The notes under the pieces: model-generated
Databases searched by the model: none
Seen by the model: the letters and a program-made list of their open reading frames with translations, nothing else
Told to the model about the DNA's origin: nothing
Position numbers and translations under genes: made by a program
In this document: in pieces, positions 5,408 through 30,641 of the stretch
Numbering within the stretch: the first letter of the stretch is position 1
How the letters are laid out: each line of letters opens with the position of its first letter
Origin: Spirochaetales bacterium
GTDB taxonomy: Bacteria; Spirochaetota; Spirochaetia; DAHUYW01
Direction: 5' to 3'
DNA length: 54,531 nucleotides
Assembly (NCBI GenBank): GCA_027314665.1
Contig: DAHVAK010000080.1
Location: 1 to 54,531 of the forward strand

Positions 5408-7246
5408 CTACCCCTCCTCGGGGATCTCGCGGACCGCCCCACGATCCGCGGAGGTTACGTGTATCGCGTAGAGCCGAAGGGCCGGGCTCACCGCCCGCGC
5501 ACGCGCAGGCGGCCTGAAGGCGAGCTTTCCCTTCGCCTCTTCCCGACGCCTTCGCGCGACGAGCTCCTCGCCGGTGATCTTCAGGTTCATGGCCCGATTG
5601 GGGATGTCGATCTCGATGGTGTCCCCGTCCTCGATGAGCGCAAGGGCGCCGCCGGCGGCGGCCTCCGGAGAGATGTGGCAGATCGAGAGGCCCGAGGTTC
5701 CGCCGGAGAAGCGCCCGTCGGTGATGAGGGCGCACTCTTTGCCGAGGTGCATGGCCTTGATGTAGGAGGTCGGATAGAGCATCTCCTGCATCCCCGGCCC
5801 GCCCTTCGGCCCCTCGTAGCGGATGACGACGACGTCCCCCGCCCTCACCTTCCCGCCGAGGATCCCTTCGCTCGCCTCATCCTGCGAGGAGAAGACCCGC
5901 GCGGTTCCCACGAAGTGGTAGATCGAGGGGTCAACCCCGGCGGTTTTCACGATACTCCCGCTCTCGGCGATATTGCCATAGAGGACCGCAAGCCCGCCAT
6001 CCTTGTAGTAGGCGTGCTCGAAGTCGCGGATGCAGCCGCCCTCCCGATCCGTGTCGAGCTCGCGGAAGCTGCTCGCCTGCGAGGCCATGACGAGGTTGCG
6101 CTTTCCGGCCGGGGCGCTGCGGAAAAGCTCGATCGCCTCCTCGGTGGCGCTCGGGCGGCGGATGTCGTGCTGGTCGATCGCCTCCTTCAGGCTCAGACCG
6201 TCGGCGCGGCGCACGCTCGTGTCGATCGCCGCGATGCGCTCGAGCTCGCCCATGATGGAGAGGATCCCGCCCGCCCGATTCACGTCCTCGACGTGGTAGG
6301 CCGAGCTCGGGGCCACCTTGCAGAGGCAGGGGATGCGCTTAGAGAGGGCGTCGATGTCCTTCATGGTGAAATCGACCTCGCCCTCGTGCGCGATGGCGAG
6401 GAGGTGGAGCACGGTGTTCGTCGAGCCTCCCATCGCGATGTCGAGAGCCATGGCGTTCAGGAAGGCGGCCTTGGTCGCGATCCCGCGGGGGAGCACGCTC
6501 GTATCCCCCTCGTCGTAGTAGCGGCGGGCGTTGCGCACGATCTGGCGAGCAGCCCGCTCGAAGAGGCGCTTGCGGTTCGCATGAGTGGCAACCACCGTGC
6601 CGTTGCCGGGAAGGGCGAGACCGAGGGCCTCGTTCAGGCAGTTCATCGAGTTCGCCGTGAACATCCCCGAGCAGCTCCCGCAGGTCGGGCAGGCGGCCCG
6701 CTCGAGGGCGAGCACCTCCTCGTCGGAGACCGCCGCGTCGGCGCTCATGACCATGGCATCGACGAGGTCGTACTTCTTGCTTCCGACCACGCCGGCCTCC
6801 ATCGGCCCGCCCGAGACGAAGATAGTGGGGATGTTCAGGCGCATCGCCGCCATGAGCATCCCGGGGGTGATCTTGTCGCAGTTGGAGATGCACACGAGGG
6901 CGTCCACCTTGTGGGCGTTGCACATGTACTCGACGCTGTCCGCGATGAGGTCCCGTGAGGGAAGCGAGTAGAGCATCCCGTCGTGCCCCATGGCGATTCC
7001 GTCGTCGACCGCGATCGTGTTGAACTCCACTCCGAAGCAGCCCTCCGAGTCGATCACCGACTTCACGTATTGTCCGATGTCGTGAAGGTGGGCGTGGCCG
7101 GGCACCATCTGGGTGAAGGAGTTGGCGACGGCGATGATCGGCTTGCCGAAGCCGCTCTCCTGCATGCCCACCGCCCGCCAAAGCGCCCGCGCTCCCGCCA
7201 TGCGGCGACCCTCGGTTGTTGTCAGGCTTCGAAGAGGGATTTTCAT
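5408..7246 (-). CDS. ilvD: dihydroxy-acid dehydratase
   Basis: [57 protein letters not shown]. Confidence 0.98.
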
Positions 7247-12632: not shown

Positions 12633-12776
12633 TTCCCCTCCCCGCTGGCGGCGTCCGCACGCTCGAAGCCGCTCCCAACGCGCCTCCCGCCGACCCGCCT
12701 ACGAATGTCGTAATCATGAATTGATTTGTCAAATTTGGCTTCGGCTGTCTCCCCCCGACGCCCCGAAGCCCTCCCG

Positions 12777-22499: not shown

Positions 22500-22580
22500 G
22501 GCTCCCCAGGCGCTCGAGAGCCGATGCTAACTCCCCGATGGTGCTCCATCTTCCCACGCCAGTCGTTTCGAGAAACCGAT
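22500..22580 (-). ncRNA. ZMP/ZTP (pfl) riboswitch in the glyA leader
   Basis: Minus strand reads GACUGGCG...GAUGG-agca-CCAUC-GGGGAG...CGCCUGGG, giving the conserved pfl elements and the GGCG/CGCC pseudoknot. glyA is a typical target. Upstream promoter TTGCAA-N17-TAGAAT (22632-22660). Confidence 0.8.
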
Positions 22581-22695
22581 GGGGAGGAGTCGAACTCTTT
22601 CGGCGCCCCCCGGCTGTGTCCCGTTTTGCCCATTCTACCGTTCACCACCGCGGATTGCAAGGGTGACCGGAAGATGCCCGGCTGCTCCGCCTCTC

Positions 22696-23784
22696 TTAGG
22701 AGAGACTCGAACGCCGCACGAGCAGTTGCACCCGGGGGATGAGGAGGTGGAGCTCCTCCTCAAGCGGCTCCACGAGGGAGGCGACGGCTGCCGAAAGCGG
22801 CGCGGCCTCGATCTTCCCGTCAAGGAGACCGCGAAGCTCCTCGGAAGATCGTCCGGCGGCGCTGATCGCAGAACGGAGACGCTCCAGGCGCGCCTCGAAG
22901 AGGGCATGACCGCCGGCATCCGAGAGGGTCGCCCGCGCCACCTCCTCCCGGATCAAGCGGATCTCCTCCCACGCGCCGGCAACGAGCCGCTCCAGCCCCT
23001 CGCCCGCCTCCCGCCCCTGCCGCCCGAAGGCGGCAAGCCGCTCGCCCTCCGCTCGGCGCCGTGGGGCACGCTCCACCACCCAGTCCAGGGCGAGCTCGAT
23101 CGCGCGGCGCAGAGGGGAGAATCCTCTCGGCGCCTGGAACGTGAGCAGGAGCGATCGGGAAGGGAGCGCGGAAATTTCCGTGGTGGGAATCGTCCCGCGA
23201 CCCCCTTCGCAGAGGTACAGCCCTTCGCCCCAGGTAGGAGATCCCGCGCTTGGCTGCCCTCCCCGCAGCAGGGTATAGGTGCGCACCCCGCGCTCAGAAA
23301 GCTCGACGAGCCACTCCTCCATCCCTGGCCCGCGAGGCAGGGGCGCTGCGAAGGCGACTTCGCGCGTTTCCGCGAGCAGCTCGAGGGCATCCTCAACCAG
23401 GTCGCGGTAGAGCTTCGCGCCCCCGGCCGCGGAGAGGTCGAGCCGCGGTCCCCCCTTTTCGAGGCGAAAGAGATGGCGGTAGCCCGGCAGACGATAGACG
23501 AACTCGAGGGCGTCGGGCCCGGGCGCGACTGGGATGAGCGCGAGGCCCGCGGAGGCGCACTGTCGCGCAAGCGCGGCAATCATCTCCTCCGGATAGGCGC
23601 AGCTCGACCTGAATCGCTCGTCCAGGGACCAGGGAAAGGTGGAGCCCCAGTCGAGCGCAACCCTCCCGTAGCCGCAATCGCCCACGAGCTTCAGGATCTC
23701 GATGAGCCGCCCGGGGGTCGGAGGAAGCATCGAGAGATCCAGATAGATGCCGGGGGCCTCTTCGGCGGTCTTGCTCTGAGCCAT
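22696..23784 (-). CDS. GH20 (hexosaminidase D/GcnA-like) fold protein, apparently lacking catalytic residues
   Basis: Start re-called to ATG 23784. GIYLDLSMLPP, VALDWGSTFPW, AYPEEMI...AGLALIP, LEFVYRLPGYRHL match the GH20 N-half; no HxGxDE motif. Confidence 0.6.
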   Translation of the reverse strand: MAQSKTAEEAPGIYLDLSMLPPTPGRLIEILKLVGDCGYGRVALDWGSTFPWSLDERFRSSCAYPEEMIAALARQCASAGLALIPVAPGPDALEFVYRLPGYRHLFRLEKGGPRLDLSAAGGAKLYRDLVEDALELLAETREVAFAAPLPRGPGMEEWLVELSERGVRTYTLLRGGQPSAGSPTWGEGLYLCEGGRGTIPTTEISALPSRSLLLTFQAPRGFSPLRRAIELALDWVVERAPRRRAEGERLAAFGRQGREAGEGLERLVAGAWEEIRLIREEVARATLSDAGGHALFEARLERLRSAISAAGRSSEELRGLLDGKIEAAPLSAAVASLVEPLEEELHLLIPRVQLLVRRSSLS

Positions 23785-23892
23785 GGAATGTACGCTATCT
23801 CGGCTCCGCCCCGCGCGCAAGTGCCCCCTCCCGGAGGGCCAGCCTTGCCACGGGCGAGCGGCGCCGCTATGCTGCCCGCAAGGAAGGACACC

Positions 23893-25224
23893 GTGTCGAT
23901 ACCCGCCGATCTCGAAAGGCGATTCCTTACCCTCGGAATCGCCGTCCCGCGCGTGCTGCTCCCGAAGCCCGAGGTCGATCCCTCCCGGTGGGCGGTCATC
24001 GCGTGCGATCAGTTCACCTCCGAGCCCGAGTACTGGAAGCGCGTCGAGGGGGTAGTCGGGGAAGCCCCCTCGACCCTCTCGCTCATCCTCCCCGAGGTCT
24101 ACCTCGGCCGCCCGGAGGAGGGGCCGAAAACGGCTGCCATCAATCCGGCGATGACGAGCCTCCTCGAGCGCGGCCTGCTCGCCGAGCAGGGTCCCCTCTT
24201 CATCCTCGTCAAGCGATCGACCCCCCACGCCGAGTGCCGGTGGGGGCTCATCGCTGCGCTCGATCTGGAGCGCTACGATTTTCGACCCGGATCGCGAAGC
24301 CTCATCCGCGCAACCGAAGGAACGATCCTCGATCGGCTCCCCCCGCGGGAGGCGATCAGGCGCGAGGCTCCCTTCGAGCTTCCCCACATCATGGTGCTCT
24401 ACGACGATCCCCGGCAGGGGGTGCTCGCGCCCCTCGTCGCGGCCGAGGGTTCGCTCGAGCGGCTCTACGACTTCGATCTCATGACCGATGCGGGACATCT
24501 CACCGGGTTCCGCGTCGATACCCCGCCGCTCCTGGAAGGGATTGCCGCGGCCTTCGCGCGCCTCGCCGATCCGGATGCCTTCCGTGCGCGCTTCGGCAGC
24601 CCCGATCCGCTTCTCTTCGCGGTCGGCGACGGAAACCACTCCCTCGCGGCAGCCAAGGAGCTTTGGGAGAAGACCAAGCGCGAGCTCGGCCTGCCGCCGG
24701 AAGCGCTCCATCCCGCGCGCTTCGCCCTCGTCGAGCTCGTCAACCTCCACGATCGCGGCCTCGCCTTTCATCCGATTCACCGCCTGCTTTCGGGCGATGT
24801 CGCAGCGTTCCTCTCGAGCCTCGAAGCGGACCCCGAGGTGCGGATCGACCCCTGCGCCGACGAGCGCTCGATGCGCCTCGAACTCTCATCGGAGGGCCAT
24901 CGGGTGGGCTTCCTCGGCCCCGCCGCCTGCGGGGTTGCCACCTGGCACCATCCTCGGCGCTCCCTCGCGGCTGCGACGGTCCAGGAGTGTCTTGACCGCT
25001 TCGTGGAGAAGCATCCCGCGACGCGCGTCGACTATATCCACGGCGAAGAGGCCCTCGGGAGGCTCGCGCGAAGACCGGGCAACCTCGGTCTGTTCCTTCC
25101 GCCGATCGAGAAGGGGGAGTTCTTCGCAACCGTGATCCGCGATGGAGCCTTTCCCCGAAAGACCTTTTCGATGGGCGAGGCCCTCGAGAAGCGCTTCTAC
25201 TTCGAGGCGCGGCGCATTCGATAG
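23893..25224 (+). CDS. DUF1015 family protein
   Basis: WAVIACDQFTS, IRATEGTI, ELPHIMVL, FAVGDGNHSLA, PIHR, PRKTFSMG; AAGGAAGG RBS, promoter TTGCCA-N17-TATGCT (23845-23873). Confidence 0.88.
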   Translation: MSIPADLERRFLTLGIAVPRVLLPKPEVDPSRWAVIACDQFTSEPEYWKRVEGVVGEAPSTLSLILPEVYLGRPEEGPKTAAINPAMTSLLERGLLAEQGPLFILVKRSTPHAECRWGLIAALDLERYDFRPGSRSLIRATEGTILDRLPPREAIRREAPFELPHIMVLYDDPRQGVLAPLVAAEGSLERLYDFDLMTDAGHLTGFRVDTPPLLEGIAAAFARLADPDAFRARFGSPDPLLFAVGDGNHSLAAAKELWEKTKRELGLPPEALHPARFALVELVNLHDRGLAFHPIHRLLSGDVAAFLSSLEADPEVRIDPCADERSMRLELSSEGHRVGFLGPAACGVATWHHPRRSLAAATVQECLDRFVEKHPATRVDYIHGEEALGRLARRPGNLGLFLPPIEKGEFFATVIRDGAFPRKTFSMGEALEKRFYFEARRIR

Positions 25225-26365: not shown

Positions 26366-26449
26366 TTTTCTCGTTATTAGGTCAACACTTAATCCGTAAC
26401 TGCCGAAAATGTGAGGGGTTTGGGTGCACCGCACTCCCGGAGCATAGGG

Positions 26450-27913
26450 ATGGCCGCTGAAAGACAGCAAGAACTTGCTAAGAAATCGCAAACCACCTCG
26501 CAGCATGTCGCCTCTGCGTTCAGTCCGGAGGAGTCCGAGCTCGAGCAGTATGGAGTTTGGGTGAAAGAGGGTCCGGAAGACGTCGTCGGGCTCGACGAGG
26601 AGCTCGGCGAAGTGAGCGCTCCGGAGGGTGTGCTGACTGCCGAAGAGGAGGATCTGCTCGGGTCGCTCGAGTCCTCGGTCGGCGAGGAGCTCTCTCCCCC
26701 TTCTGAGACCAACGACGAGGGACTCGGGCTGGAAAATCTGGACGAAGACTTCTCCTTTGATCTCGAAGAGGAGCACCTGGAGCTCGACGAGCTTCCAGGG
26801 CTCGGCGAGGCCGCCGAAGAAGAGCTGTGGATCGAGAGCCCTCCGCAGGCTGCGGCCCCCGCAAGCCAGCCGGCAACCAGTTATACATCCCGTGAGGAAA
26901 CGGACCTCGAACCTATCGACGATCTGAGCGCCTTCGAGGCCGACCTCGCCGGTTCGAGCGAAGAGGGAGAATCCATGCGCATGCCAGATGGGTCGCAATC
27001 GATACTCCAAAAGATCGAGCAGGATCTCCTGTCGATCAAGCACGAGCTCGCGGCTCTGAAAACCGAGATCTCCAGTCTTCGGGAGACGGCCTCTCCCGCG
27101 AGGACCGACGAAAAGCCTAAAGAGGATGAGGCCGGATTCTTCGCAGAGGATGAGGATGAGACCATTGCCCTTACGGGTGATGAGCTCGACAACATCCTCA
27201 ACACCGCTGACATCACCGAAGAAACAGGCGAGCCTACCGTGGTGCCCGAGGATTCCGAGCTCATTGTCGAAGAGGCGACCCCGGAGCCTGAAATCCTGAT
27301 CGACAAGGACAACATTCTCGATCTCGAGGAAGAAGTCCCAGCCCCTGCCAAGCCAGCCCTGCTCGAGGCCGAAGACGAGGTTCCGATCGAGCTGCCGGAG
27401 GAGGAGATCATCCTGGAGGATCTTCCCGAGCCCGAGGCGGCGGAGCCCGAGCCGATGAGCCCGGAGGAGCTCGAGTCCTTCGACGAGATTCAAATCGATC
27501 TTCCCGAAAGCGAGGAGGCGGCGGGCATCGAGGAGCTGCCGGAGATAACCCTCGACGAGGAGGAGGACCAGCCCGTCGACATCGAGCTCGGCGAGGAGTT
27601 CGACCTTTCTTCGAGCGAGAAGGAAGCCCTTGCGAGTGAGACGCTCGACCTTGAGGAAGAGGAGCTTCTCGAGCCAGTCGAGCCCGTGAAGGCCACACAT
27701 TCCGCAACGACGACCGCCCCCGCCGCTCCGACGAAAGCTGCGCCCGCCGAGGAGGAGATCCCCGACGATCTCAAGACCGAGATCAAGTCGATCCTCAAAT
27801 ACATGGATCAGCTTCTCGAGGCGCTTCCCGAGGACAAGATCGAGGAGTTCGCGCGTTCCGAGTACTTCGAAGTCTACAAGAAGCTCTTTGACGAGCTAGG
27901 GCTCACCACCTAA
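26450..27913 (+). CDS. highly acidic, largely disordered hypothetical protein
   Basis: Very Glu/Asp-rich, with ordered-looking islands: ELEQYGVWVKEGPED, a central coiled coil, GFFAEDEDETIALTGDELDNIL and a C-terminal helical domain. Confidence 0.85.
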   Translation: MAAERQQELAKKSQTTSQHVASAFSPEESELEQYGVWVKEGPEDVVGLDEELGEVSAPEGVLTAEEEDLLGSLESSVGEELSPPSETNDEGLGLENLDEDFSFDLEEEHLELDELPGLGEAAEEELWIESPPQAAAPASQPATSYTSREETDLEPIDDLSAFEADLAGSSEEGESMRMPDGSQSILQKIEQDLLSIKHELAALKTEISSLRETASPARTDEKPKEDEAGFFAEDEDETIALTGDELDNILNTADITEETGEPTVVPEDSELIVEEATPEPEILIDKDNILDLEEEVPAPAKPALLEAEDEVPIELPEEEIILEDLPEPEAAEPEPMSPEELESFDEIQIDLPESEEAAGIEELPEITLDEEEDQPVDIELGEEFDLSSSEKEALASETLDLEEEELLEPVEPVKATHSATTTAPAAPTKAAPAEEEIPDDLKTEIKSILKYMDQLLEALPEDKIEEFARSEYFEVYKKLFDELGLTT

Positions 27914-27914
27914 G

Positions 27915-28999
27915 ATGGGGTTACTCGAGCGACTCGCACGAAAACCGATTCTCTCAGGAGCCGCCGAAGGGCTGCTTCGCAGGGCGGCAAAGATTCGCGA
28001 ACACGGGGCTCCGCAGCAAGCCGGGGTTCCGGGGGAAGCCGGGCCTTCGCCGTCAAAAAAAAAAGCCCAGAGCCGTCGCTTCCTTCCGCCCCGCTCGACG
28101 CTCGCTCTCTCAGCGAGGCAATCGCCAGGCTTGAACCCGGACTCGATCTAGGGGGAGAGCTCTTCGCGCTCTACCGCGACGCCTTCCGAATCGACAAGGG
28201 AGCCCTTCTCCTTCCCGACGGAAACGAGGGGTGTTTCTCTCCGTGGGCGATAGCGGGGTTCGACCGCACGACCGAGCACCGCCTGCGCATCCCCGAGGAG
28301 TTCATCCTTTCCCTTTCCGGGATCGACGCGGGGGACGCAGCGGCGCTCGCTCCCAAGGAGATCCTCCCCCTCCAGGCCTACTTCTCGACGCGGGAGTTCG
28401 GTCTCATCGAGAAGCTCATCCTCGTGCCCTTCGTCGTCGGCGATCGGTTGGTCGCCCTTCTCCTTATCGCTCGTGGGCGGCCCCTCCCATCGGATGGGAC
28501 CGAAACGATCCATCGCCTCGAGGAGTCGGCGCTGATCGCTGCCCCGCTCATCCGGCGGTCGCGCACCGTCATCCGAACGGAGGGTCCGCTCGAGCCTCAG
28601 GGCGATCTCGGCGCCCGCCTCGGAGAGCTCGTTGCGGAGGCCGCCGCCGACAACCGTTTCATCCTCTTCGTGAAGCTGGATGTCGCCGAGATCACGGCTG
28701 CCCTCCCCTCCCACGGAGTCGGGTTGGATCCCTATCACCTGCGCAAGGACATCGTGCGCGTCCTCTCCTCGATGGTGTCCGGAACCGGCGAGCTCATTCG
28801 ACTCAGCCCGACCCGACTTCTCCTGACGCTGTCGAGCCGCGTCTCCCACGATCGGGAGCTCATCGTCCACCAGATCTGCGCGGGCCTGAGCTCTCTCTTT
28901 GGCGCCAAGCTCGAGCCGGCACAGCTCCACATCCGCTCATGGAGCTATCCACAGGAAACCCTTTCCGCCAATGAGCTCATCTCCCAGGTCAGCCAATGA
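27915..28999 (+). CDS. hypothetical protein split by a -1 frameshift at an A10 tract (GAF-like and degenerate GGDEF-like regions)
   Basis: ATG 27915 follows the upstream stop by 1 nt. A10 lies at 28055-28064. The -1 frame is open and protein-like from there to 28999 but has no start codon until 28424. Confidence 0.7.
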
Positions 29000-30641
29000 A
29001 TTTCCGATCCGCTTCGCGCGCTCTCGCGCGGGCGAAGTCTATGCCGAGGCTTCCGGGATCCGCATCCACTCGGCCTACGATCCCCGGCGAGAGGCTCGCA
29101 GATTCGTAGAGGCCCAGACAGCCGATCCCTCCCCCGCCACTTGGGTTGTTCTCGGGGAGGCCCTCGGCTACCTCACCGAGGCGATCCGGGAGCGCTCGCC
29201 GCAGGCGCGAATCCTTCCCATCAGCTATCATGCGCAGCTCGTCGGAGCCGAGAGCAAGACGGCCTGGTCACCGGCATCGCGTGAGACAATCGAGGCCTAC
29301 CTGACACGCTCCCTCGGCGAGCTTGAGATCGAGGGGCTGAAGGTGATCGAGTGGGCGCCCTCGGGCGCCGCCTTCCCTCGCGAGGCCCAACGCGCGAAGG
29401 CGGCAGTCGCCCAGGCGGTGCGCGAGCTGTCGGGAAGCCTGACGACGACGCGCGCCTTCGGCCTGCGTTGGGCACGCAACTGCCTCGCAAACTTCCTCGC
29501 GCTTGAGGATCGGCTCGAGTCCGCGAGCCTCGGCGCGCTCTCCCCCCTGCGACGGCTCGCCGTGGTCGCGGCGTCGGGTCCCTCTCTCGCCGAGGCGCTG
29601 CCGATCCTCAAACCCCTGCGCAAGAGCATCCTGCTCATCTCCTTGCCCTCCTCCCTGTCCGCCCTCGCCGCGGCGGGGCTGAGGCCGGATCTTGTCGTCG
29701 CTACCGATGGGGGAAACTGGGCCTCCCTCCATCTGGCGGAGGTCGCTCGCCTTCCCCCCGGGGAGAGGCTGCCCCTCGCGATGCCCCTGTCGGCAGCCCG
29801 CGGATCCTGGCATACCGGCGGGCCCCTCCTTCTTCTTACCCAGGCCACCCTCTTCGAGCGGGAATTGCTCGCAGAAAGCCGCCTGTCCGCGATCCCTATC
29901 GCTGCGCACGGGACCGTCGCGGCAGGGGCTCTCGCGCTCGCGCTCCTCCTCACGCGGGGACCGGTGGTCGTCGCGGGACTCGATCTCTGCTTTCGCGACA
30001 TCCTTGAGCATGTCCGTCCGCACACCTTCGATTCGATATGGGAAAGAAGAGAGTCCCGGCTCGCTCCCGCCTACAGCGCGCAGTTTCAACGGGCGATGGA
30101 GCGCTTGGAGCGCGCGAGCGAGGGTGAGTCGTTCGCCGCGCGCACCTCGCATGCCTTTCGGGCCTACGCCGGATGGTTTGCCGGGCTCGCCGACAGCGAG
30201 GGGCGCCTCTTCCGCCTGCACCCATCGCCGATCGCTCTCCCCGGCTTCACTCCGCTCGACGGAGACGCCCTCCGAAGGCTCAGCGGCGAAGCCGCGAGGT
30301 GCGAGCCGCGCACGCGACTGCCCTTCGGAGAGGCGGCCGCGGTCCCCCGCGAAAGGCGCGCCGCGGCGGCAGCGGCGGTTCTCGCCCGGATCGAGGAGCG
30401 ACTCGCACTCGGACGCCGCGCGCTCGGCAATCCTCCTCGCTCCGGCGGAAAGGACTCAGGCGAGCTCCCGATCCAACCTGAGCTCGGCGAGCTCCTCTAT
30501 GAGCTGGACACGGCGGGCCTGCTCGAGACGAAACGAGCGGCGCGAGTCGAAGGCCTCGAGGCAGGGCGCACGAGGCTGTTCGCATCCATCGAGAGCGCCG
30601 AGGCCCACATCGCGCAGATGCGAGCCCACTACCTCGGGTAG
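28971..30641 (+). CDS. motility-associated factor (Maf/DUF115, MptE-like) protein
   Basis: IHSAYDPRREA, VAASGPSL, PDLVVATDGG, GTVA, AGLDL motifs. Confidence 0.82.
   Translation: MSSSPRSANEFPIRFARSRAGEVYAEASGIRIHSAYDPRREARRFVEAQTADPSPATWVVLGEALGYLTEAIRERSPQARILPISYHAQLVGAESKTAWSPASRETIEAYLTRSLGELEIEGLKVIEWAPSGAAFPREAQRAKAAVAQAVRELSGSLTTTRAFGLRWARNCLANFLALEDRLESASLGALSPLRRLAVVAASGPSLAEALPILKPLRKSILLISLPSSLSALAAAGLRPDLVVATDGGNWASLHLAEVARLPPGERLPLAMPLSAARGSWHTGGPLLLLTQATLFERELLAESRLSAIPIAAHGTVAAGALALALLLTRGPVVVAGLDLCFRDILEHVRPHTFDSIWERRESRLAPAYSAQFQRAMERLERASEGESFAARTSHAFRAYAGWFAGLADSEGRLFRLHPSPIALPGFTPLDGDALRRLSGEAARCEPRTRLPFGEAAAVPRERRAAAAAAVLARIEERLALGRRALGNPPRSGGKDSGELPIQPELGELLYELDTAGLLETKRAARVEGLEAGRTRLFASIESAEAHIAQMRAHYLG

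Follow-up and report, generated by a model that had tools for sequence, protein, structure and literature searches.

A conserved poly-A run divides a GAF-like protein gene of the Spirochaetia between two frames, with transcriptional slippage as the favoured means of joining them

Two reading frames of a Spirochaetales genome meet at a run of ten adenines, and the question raised by this locus is whether they form one gene joined during expression, two separate genes, a decayed gene or an artefact of assembly. The locus lies at positions 27915-28999 of contig DAHVAK010000080.1 (assembly GCA_027314665.1), a stretch of 54,531 nucleotides that was analysed as a whole and is called the window below. 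The original prediction, made from the letters of this stretch, proposed that an A10 slippery tract divides the gene into a product of 78 amino acids (aa) and one of about 361 aa, through programmed expression of two products or through phase variation. The coordinates, both frames and both lengths proved correct. The run occupied 28055-28064 of the forward strand, within TCA AAA AAA AAA GCC at 28053-28067. The 0 frame ran from the ATG at 27915 to a TAG at 28149-28151 (78 aa), and the -1 frame was open from 27914 to a TGA at 28997-28999; joining 27915-28064 to the -1 frame from 28064 gave a protein of 50 + 311 = 361 aa. The absence of an early start codon in the -1 frame was borne out as well, the earliest ATG, GTG or TTG being a GTG at 28424, 120 codons past the run.

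The run was as conspicuous in this GC-rich DNA as had been claimed. It was the sole stretch of at least 8 A/T in the window (matches to A8 averaged 0.13 per dinucleotide shuffle, and three matches were reached in none of 100 shuffles) and one of only two A10 runs in the genome (3.64 Mb, 64.1% G+C). The lysine codon AAA was rare, accounting for 15 of the 99 Lys codons in eight genes of the window.

We favour, with moderate confidence, the reading of 27915-28999 as one recoded gene in which slippage of RNA polymerase adds one A and thereby gives the full protein. Standard decoding would yield the basic 78-aa peptide. Where the polymerase slipped on the T10 template, an eleventh A would enter the messenger RNA (mRNA) and the ribosome would read on into the C-terminal part (C-part), producing a 361-aa protein in which a basic MGLLxRA...GLLxRA peptide is connected by a KKK linker to a GAF-like domain, itself followed by a degenerate GGDEF-like domain. 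The position and length of the run would suit such a site, since the ten A's stand at the frame junction and are at least as long as the RNA:DNA hybrid (8-9).

The evidence that carries this reading came from homologous loci. C-part homologues were found in 21 of 41 sampled relatives and, with a 12-member profile, in 189 of 401 genomes of the class, distributed over 86 of its 156 genera. The junction regions of 141 matching genomes, all Spirochaetia, were fetched, and 139 of them were classified, 121 by script and 18 by eye where an upstream gene end or an ATG had escaped the script; the two others were a locus with masked N (L126) and one cut by a contig end (L116). The survey set was exclusive of nine contig-end or partial matches (G265, G391, G140, G210, G250, G109, G281, G197 and G290), of a second match in G015 and of 48 weaker matches. 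Named records in the family comprised Spirochaetales and Spirochaetaceae metagenome-assembled genomes (MAGs), Sediminispirochaeta, Alkalispirochaeta, Treponema and the isolate Brucepastera parasyntrophica.

Orthologues did retain a poly-A run with an out-of-frame junction, as would be expected of a recoded gene. A run of at least 9 A with the C-part at -1 was found in 52 genomes from 27 genera and 18 GTDB families (A9 in two, A10 in 41, A11 in six and A12 in three). In 26 further genomes (13 genera, 8 families) a run of A9 to A14 stood in the same linker in frame, and 61 genomes (27 genera, 14 families), the Treponema-type members being among those without a run, had a continuous frame and no long run. 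The out-of-frame relation was always -1, the C-part being in the +1 frame in none of the 139 genomes. Two apparent exceptions in the named set turned out to be wrong start calls, both genes being continuous.

Both halves of the split gene were conserved. The N-terminal part (N-part) was a short basic peptide in which MGL[LIFM]xR/K...GLLxR/KA was kept in the ATG frame across families, and this motif together with the C-part in the -1 frame was conserved down to about 25-30% identity. The 0-frame tails past the run were of 0-50 codons in the homologues (median 9) and had no common sequence. The first ATG, GTG or TTG of the C frame was more than 10 codons past the run in 34 of the 52 split loci, was lacking from the fetched stretch in 13, and lay within 10 codons in five. 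Programmed recoding with two products was thus upheld by the -1 relation in 52 of 139 loci, by the conservation of both halves and by 47 of the 52 loci lacking a nearby start for the C-part. Judged from the compared sequences, the conserved -1 split itself is real and kept out of frame, being neither an assembly error, a dead gene nor a phase switch. Because the C-part is conserved, we infer that the full-length protein is made.

Some of these observations bear directly on the possibility that nothing is recoded, the locus being either a pseudogene or a gene with a true genomic A11 from which assembly dropped one A. No assembly error is commoner than a single-base frameshift in a homopolymer, which is also a frequent way for a gene to be inactivated, and the genome is a MAG of 299 contigs. 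However, Logan contigs from two samples of one study (X1, possibly the source sample of the assembly, and X2, a second sample) spanned the run without a gap, and all of them read A10. Neither A11 nor A8, either of which had been named as the sign of a homopolymer error, was seen, in contigs rather than reads and at a contig depth over the run of only about 5-7. The contigs held two haplotypes, with C or T at 28050, and both had A10; runs X3 and X4 gave only short diverged pieces that did not reach the A10 run, and no RNA run was listed as containing this stretch. The haplotype difference, five bases before the run, changed Pro to Ser in the 0 frame. More broadly, 52 genomes from 18 families showed the same -1 split with both halves open and conserved; contig names indicate that different assemblers had been used for them, and in-frame runs of 10-14 A were assembled unbroken in sister lineages. 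The isolate Brucepastera parasyntrophica RmG11, which has a complete genome, showed the split too: it had A9 with the C-part at -1, and its relatives were in frame (...KKKNGLL...). An error or a dead gene is, in our estimate, a very improbable account.

About equally improbable is the idea of two genes, one for the 78-aa peptide and another for a C-part protein with a start of its own. One homologue, G002, had a TTG immediately after the run in the C frame, as would suit such an arrangement, and the five loci with a start codon within 10 codons could be read in the same way. In the other 47 split loci no such codon was found at that distance. In the window, the first possible C-part start would leave out 120 codons and, with them, invariant residues of the GAF-like domain, and N- and C-parts formed one continuous frame in 87 of the 139 genomes.

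Phase variation, which the original prediction had offered next to two-product expression, fared poorly. In such a contingency locus, slipped-strand mispairing would toggle the gene between OFF (A10) and ON (A11 or A8). Homopolymers of this length are mutable in replication (PMC3711429), in-frame and out-of-frame states both occurred, and one genus (g11) had three variants (A10 both in and out of frame, and A11 in frame). Against this, none of the 52 out-of-frame genomes was in the +1 state. Run length and state were uniform in g3 and in the multi-genome genera with an out-of-frame run other than g11 and g98, the latter having A11 and A10, all at -1; A10 with -1 was found in 5 of 5 genomes of g26, 4 of 4 of g46, 4 of 4 of g122 and 3 of 3 of g119. 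In-frame and out-of-frame A10 were distinguished by changes outside the run and not by its length, the contigs of two samples and two haplotypes all had A10, and the product resembled a cytoplasmic GAF-type protein rather than a surface or restriction-modification protein. Given the lack of a +1 state, the uniformity within genera and the A10 states that differ outside the run, a phase switch is improbable, although rare length variants may lie hidden beneath the contigs.

The comparison further indicates that the run is under selection as a homopolymer. This was suggested by the 26 genomes with in-frame A9-A14, by four families that contained both -1 and in-frame run states, by the occurrence of all three codon phases of the run (12, 23 and 17 of the 52 loci) and by the rarity of AAA.

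A shift during translation was the alternative closest in outcome to polymerase slippage. Here the mRNA would be a faithful A10 and the frame would be restored by a -1 programmed ribosomal frameshift on A_AAA_AAA or A_AAA_AAG, or by sliding of the ribosome, which is known to occur on lysine-encoding poly-A. The 0 frame of the window, TC[A AAA AAA] AAA GCC, contained a perfect X_XXY_YYZ heptamer, and the same was on offer in any phase of a run of at least 9 A; G followed the run in 30 of the 52 loci, and A_AAA_AAG was possible in the 23 phase-1 loci. The direction of the shift, always -1, also fits this account, and the product would be the same as by slippage. Yet a heptamer would suffice for the ribosome, whereas 9-12 A were kept, 10 of them in 41 of the 52 loci, and the 0-frame phase of the run was not conserved.

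Nor did the flanks provide the ribosome with a recognizable stimulator. The upstream element GGGGGAAG was present at 28031-28038 as described, but the Shine-Dalgarno-like stimulator proposed upstream found no backing in the homologues, where such motifs occurred 5-25 nt upstream of the run in 11 of 52 loci vs 12 of 52 in a control stretch. The proposed downstream stem, GAGCCGTCG/CGACG..CTC, did appear in the minimum-energy fold (-9.7 kcal/mol); as a stimulator it failed, being no better than shuffles (z = -0.38) and not conserved. The 45 nt upstream of the run in the window likewise folded no better than shuffles (z +0.49; pseudoknots were outside the search on both flanks), and over 39 genera the mean z was -0.53 upstream and -0.82 downstream, with no conserved structure. 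A hairpin that ends at the run reportedly promotes slippage in some insertion sequences. Strong hairpins ending right at the poly-A run (z -2.0 to -5.0) were observed in five loci (L088, z -3.1; L096, z -5.0; L101, L103 and L129); run-abutting hairpins occurred in both in-frame and -1 members, and the window had none.

The polymerase is preferred over the ribosome because the run is kept at 9-12, mostly 10, though 7 would serve the ribosome, because it is kept also when in frame, because its 0-frame phase is free and because no stimulator is conserved. Run lengths of 9-12 fit those reported for transcriptional slippage and exceed the 7 nt needed by a ribosomal shift. A ribosomal shift is possible, though we doubt it.

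Several points weigh against slippage in a conserved split gene. Whatever its phase, the run contained perfect -1 heptamers, A_AAA_AAA in the window and A_AAA_AAG in a good many homologues, and a ribosomal shift would yield the identical protein. A systematic loss of one A in assembly would give the identical -1 relation in the contigs examined; this is unlikely to have happened across the assemblies, as most contig names were typical of short-read assemblers and in-frame A10-A14 were assembled in sister lineages. Eye classification was used for 18 of the 139 loci, three of which (G155, G046 and G243) had no N-frame ATG near the upstream stop, and their -1 assignment depends on the frame of the GLL motif. 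Kin are not independent, and the -1 state may trace to few events, so that '52 of 52' is not a probability. Finally, 61 of the 139 genomes had no run at all, and the two-product arrangement is therefore not essential to the gene family. The original prediction had named orthologues that are continuous without a poly-A as grounds for rejecting recoding. Such orthologues were indeed found in those 61 genomes, but since many other lineages (52 of 139 genomes) nonetheless keep the -1 split, they do not refute it.

If slippage by the polymerase is taken as the mechanism, the run would fix the ratio of short to long product. Restoration of the frame, its occurrence in transcription and not in translation, and a function of the short product or of the ratio are each inferred, while the run, the two frames, their conservation and the modelled fold of the C-part are observed. 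The gene context suggests a further role, in which the run would keep the amount of full-length protein in a constant proportion to the acidic protein encoded upstream, since the ATG of the recoded gene abuts the stop of that gene (Table 1).

Table 1. Features of the recoded gene and its neighbours in the window
Feature	Position	Strand	Description
Upstream gene	26411..27913	+	500 aa, very acidic; conserved C-terminal module ...LLEALPEDKIEEFARSEYFEVYKKLFDELGLTT; stop TAA 27911-27913
N-part of the putative recoded gene, 0 frame	27915..28064	+	50 codons, MGLLERLARKPILSGAAEGLLRRAAKIREHG to SKKK; basic, two GLLxRA-type motifs
A10 run, candidate recoding site	28055..28064	+	corresponding run of A9-A12, with the C-part at -1, in 52/139 loci
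0-frame tail AQSRRFLPPRSTLALSARQSPGLNPDSI and TAG	28065..28151	+	would terminate the 78-aa product of unslipped decoding
C-part, -1 frame	28064..28999	+	311 codons and TGA; predicted GAF-like domain at about residues 13-170 and degenerate GGDEF-like alpha/beta domain at about 182-310
Downstream gene, MptE-like (motility-accessory-factor-like)	28971..30641	+	PF01973, E 9.6e-17

The TAA of the upstream gene ended 1 nt before the ATG at 27915. Its 500-aa product had no Pfam or NCBIfam match; the C-terminal module, of about 50 aa (LLE[SA]LPE[ED]K...EFA.SE.F..YK.LFEELG), had 512 matching stretches in species-representative genomes. In the loci examined the gene for the acidic protein was always 5' of the recoded gene, the ATG of which overlapped or abutted its stop. 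Read-through of the upstream TAA into the C-part was considered and rejected: although the upstream gene and the C-part are read in one frame in the window, the frame of the upstream gene in G001 is that of the N-part, and the C frame carried a stop at the run in many loci. On the other side, with the ATG at 28971 taken as its start, the MptE-like gene would share its first 29 nt with the end of the C-part, and a gene of this kind was also downstream in G001 and G002. Elsewhere in the window, an 881-aa open reading frame (ORF) at 22579-25224 had a DUF1015 domain confined to residues 462-806, its first 460 or so residues being without a family.

The protein itself was not recognized by sequence families. 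Neither the N-part nor the C-part matched a Pfam or NCBIfam family at E up to 0.1, including GAF, GGDEF and PelD_GGDEF, and a protein collection contained seven homologues, mostly fragments of 191-220 aa; one distant homologue (P0006) carried PF01590. The AlphaFold2 model of the C-part (pLDDT 84.4, pTM 0.72) had a GAF-like domain with an alpha/beta domain C-terminal to it. Foldseek returned PelD 158-CT (4etx) first (E 1.8e-7), then GAF-GGDEF cyclases and single GAF domains, and the nearest Atlas clusters were GAF, GGDEF and PelD_GGDEF. The model thus places the C-part nearest to PelD, as a GAF domain joined to a degenerate GGDEF-like one. In two genomes of genus g40 (family f2; G040 and G066, loci L120 and L125) the gene was continuous, with an open frame of about 605 aa and an insertion of about 300 very acidic aa between the N-motif and the GAF-like domain.

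PelD of Pseudomonas aeruginosa is a cyclic di-GMP (c-di-GMP) receptor made of a GAF and a degenerate GGDEF domain, preceded by N-terminal membrane helices. The modelled C-part has the same order of two domains, and the match to 4etx extended over about 300 columns, but identity was about 16% and the TM-score 0.32, a low value because the domains are oriented differently. Where PelD has membrane helices, the window protein has its short basic N-terminal peptide. PelD-type receptors carry an RxxD inhibitory-site motif; none was evident among the invariant or nearly invariant columns of the C-part alignment (A1), inspected by eye and without residue-level superposition on PelD, and no GGDEF motif was present in that alignment. 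With a GAF/GGDEF-like fold lacking the GGDEF motif, the full protein looks like a cytoplasmic sensor or receptor and not like a cyclase.

Joining frames at a homopolymer is familiar from other bacteria. In Shigella flexneri mxiE and Citrobacter rodentium tssM, full-length protein is reportedly made only after transcriptional slippage, on T9 or A11, and sites of this type are said to be known from few enterobacterial genes. The proposed arrangement is alike in that overlapping frames would be joined by an added homopolymer base, and as the full-length protein would be the slipped product, the run would limit its amount. Unlike mxiE and tssM, the present site spans 18 families of Spirochaetia, whose lineages swap in-frame and -1 states while keeping the run. 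Escherichia coli dnaX undergoes a -1 frameshift on A_AAA_AAG with the help of an upstream Shine-Dalgarno-like element and a downstream hairpin. It shares the -1 direction and the A-rich heptamer with the present gene, in which no such element or hairpin was conserved and the run was longer than a heptamer.

Closer in layout is dnaX of Thermus, with A9, and a two-ORF dnaX cluster, with A10 (PMC3711429). Here too a conserved run of 9-10 A lies within the coding sequence at an interdomain linker and gives a short and a long product from one gene. In Thermus thermophilus dnaX (tau/gamma), however, the long form is in frame and transcriptional slippage leads to the short one, whereas 52 of the genomes surveyed here would need the slip for the long form. 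The 26 genomes with an in-frame run resemble the Thermus arrangement, in a different protein family. PMC3711429 also describes a magnesium chelatase cluster with a -1 frameshift at A7-A11 conserved over several genera, and efficiencies in E. coli of 63, 40 and 10% for reporter cassettes with 11, 9 and 7 A's. The chelatase likewise has a -1 relation at a conserved A run, in another protein and other taxa; reporter data are available for the chelatase cluster, whereas the mechanism put forward for the present gene is a proposed one. The gene family was not found described in the slippage and frameshift literature covered (titles, abstracts and the available parts of PMC5009743 and PMC3711429, the unexamined supplementary cluster tables of the latter being a place that could hold it), and a term search of those two partial texts gave no spirochaete case. 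While the slippage mechanism is textbook knowledge, recoding in the present gene family is apparently undescribed.

The other A10 run of the genome (G000) was on contig C31 at 6068-6077 (locus L234, 2069-2078), in an unrelated gene. There the run closed a 460-codon frame (...GAEKKN*), and a LytR_cpsA_psr domain (PF03816, E 8.3e-30) continued in the -1 frame. Among 19 genomes with this gene, the junction was split at -1 in G000, G005, G024, G026 and G013 (A10) and in G019 (A9); G018, with A10 at the junction and a short open frame, is probably split as well. The run was in frame in G002, G009 and G016 (A10) and in G040 (A9), and the other eight had no run there. On the same contig, an A13 at 12689-12701 was the longest homopolymer of the genome; open frames to both sides of it did not exceed about 70 codons, and it is probably intergenic.

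A second, unrelated gene of this kind in the same genome, with its split conserved, hints that slippage-dependent genes may be a habit of the class and not a one-off. In both genes the A10 run stands at a -1 junction between domains, and each of the two splits is retained in other families. It is conceivable, and proposed here only tentatively, that poly-A tracts form a general layer of gene expression in the Spirochaetia, where either frame state would yield both isoforms and the state would set the dominant one; the keeping of the run through free changes of frame state would make sense if slippage were frequent enough to provide both. Annotations of a great many spirochaete genomes probably list this gene wrongly, as a pseudogene or a shortened ORF. 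As an instance of recoding it would be a solid new example of a known trick rather than a new principle. Its natural in-frame, -1 and run-free variants over 18 families form a comparative series in which isoform ratios can be related to run length and frame state, and, if poly-A tracts do act as such a layer, the ratio of isoforms could vary with nucleotide pools, the rate of elongation or other conditions that alter slippage.

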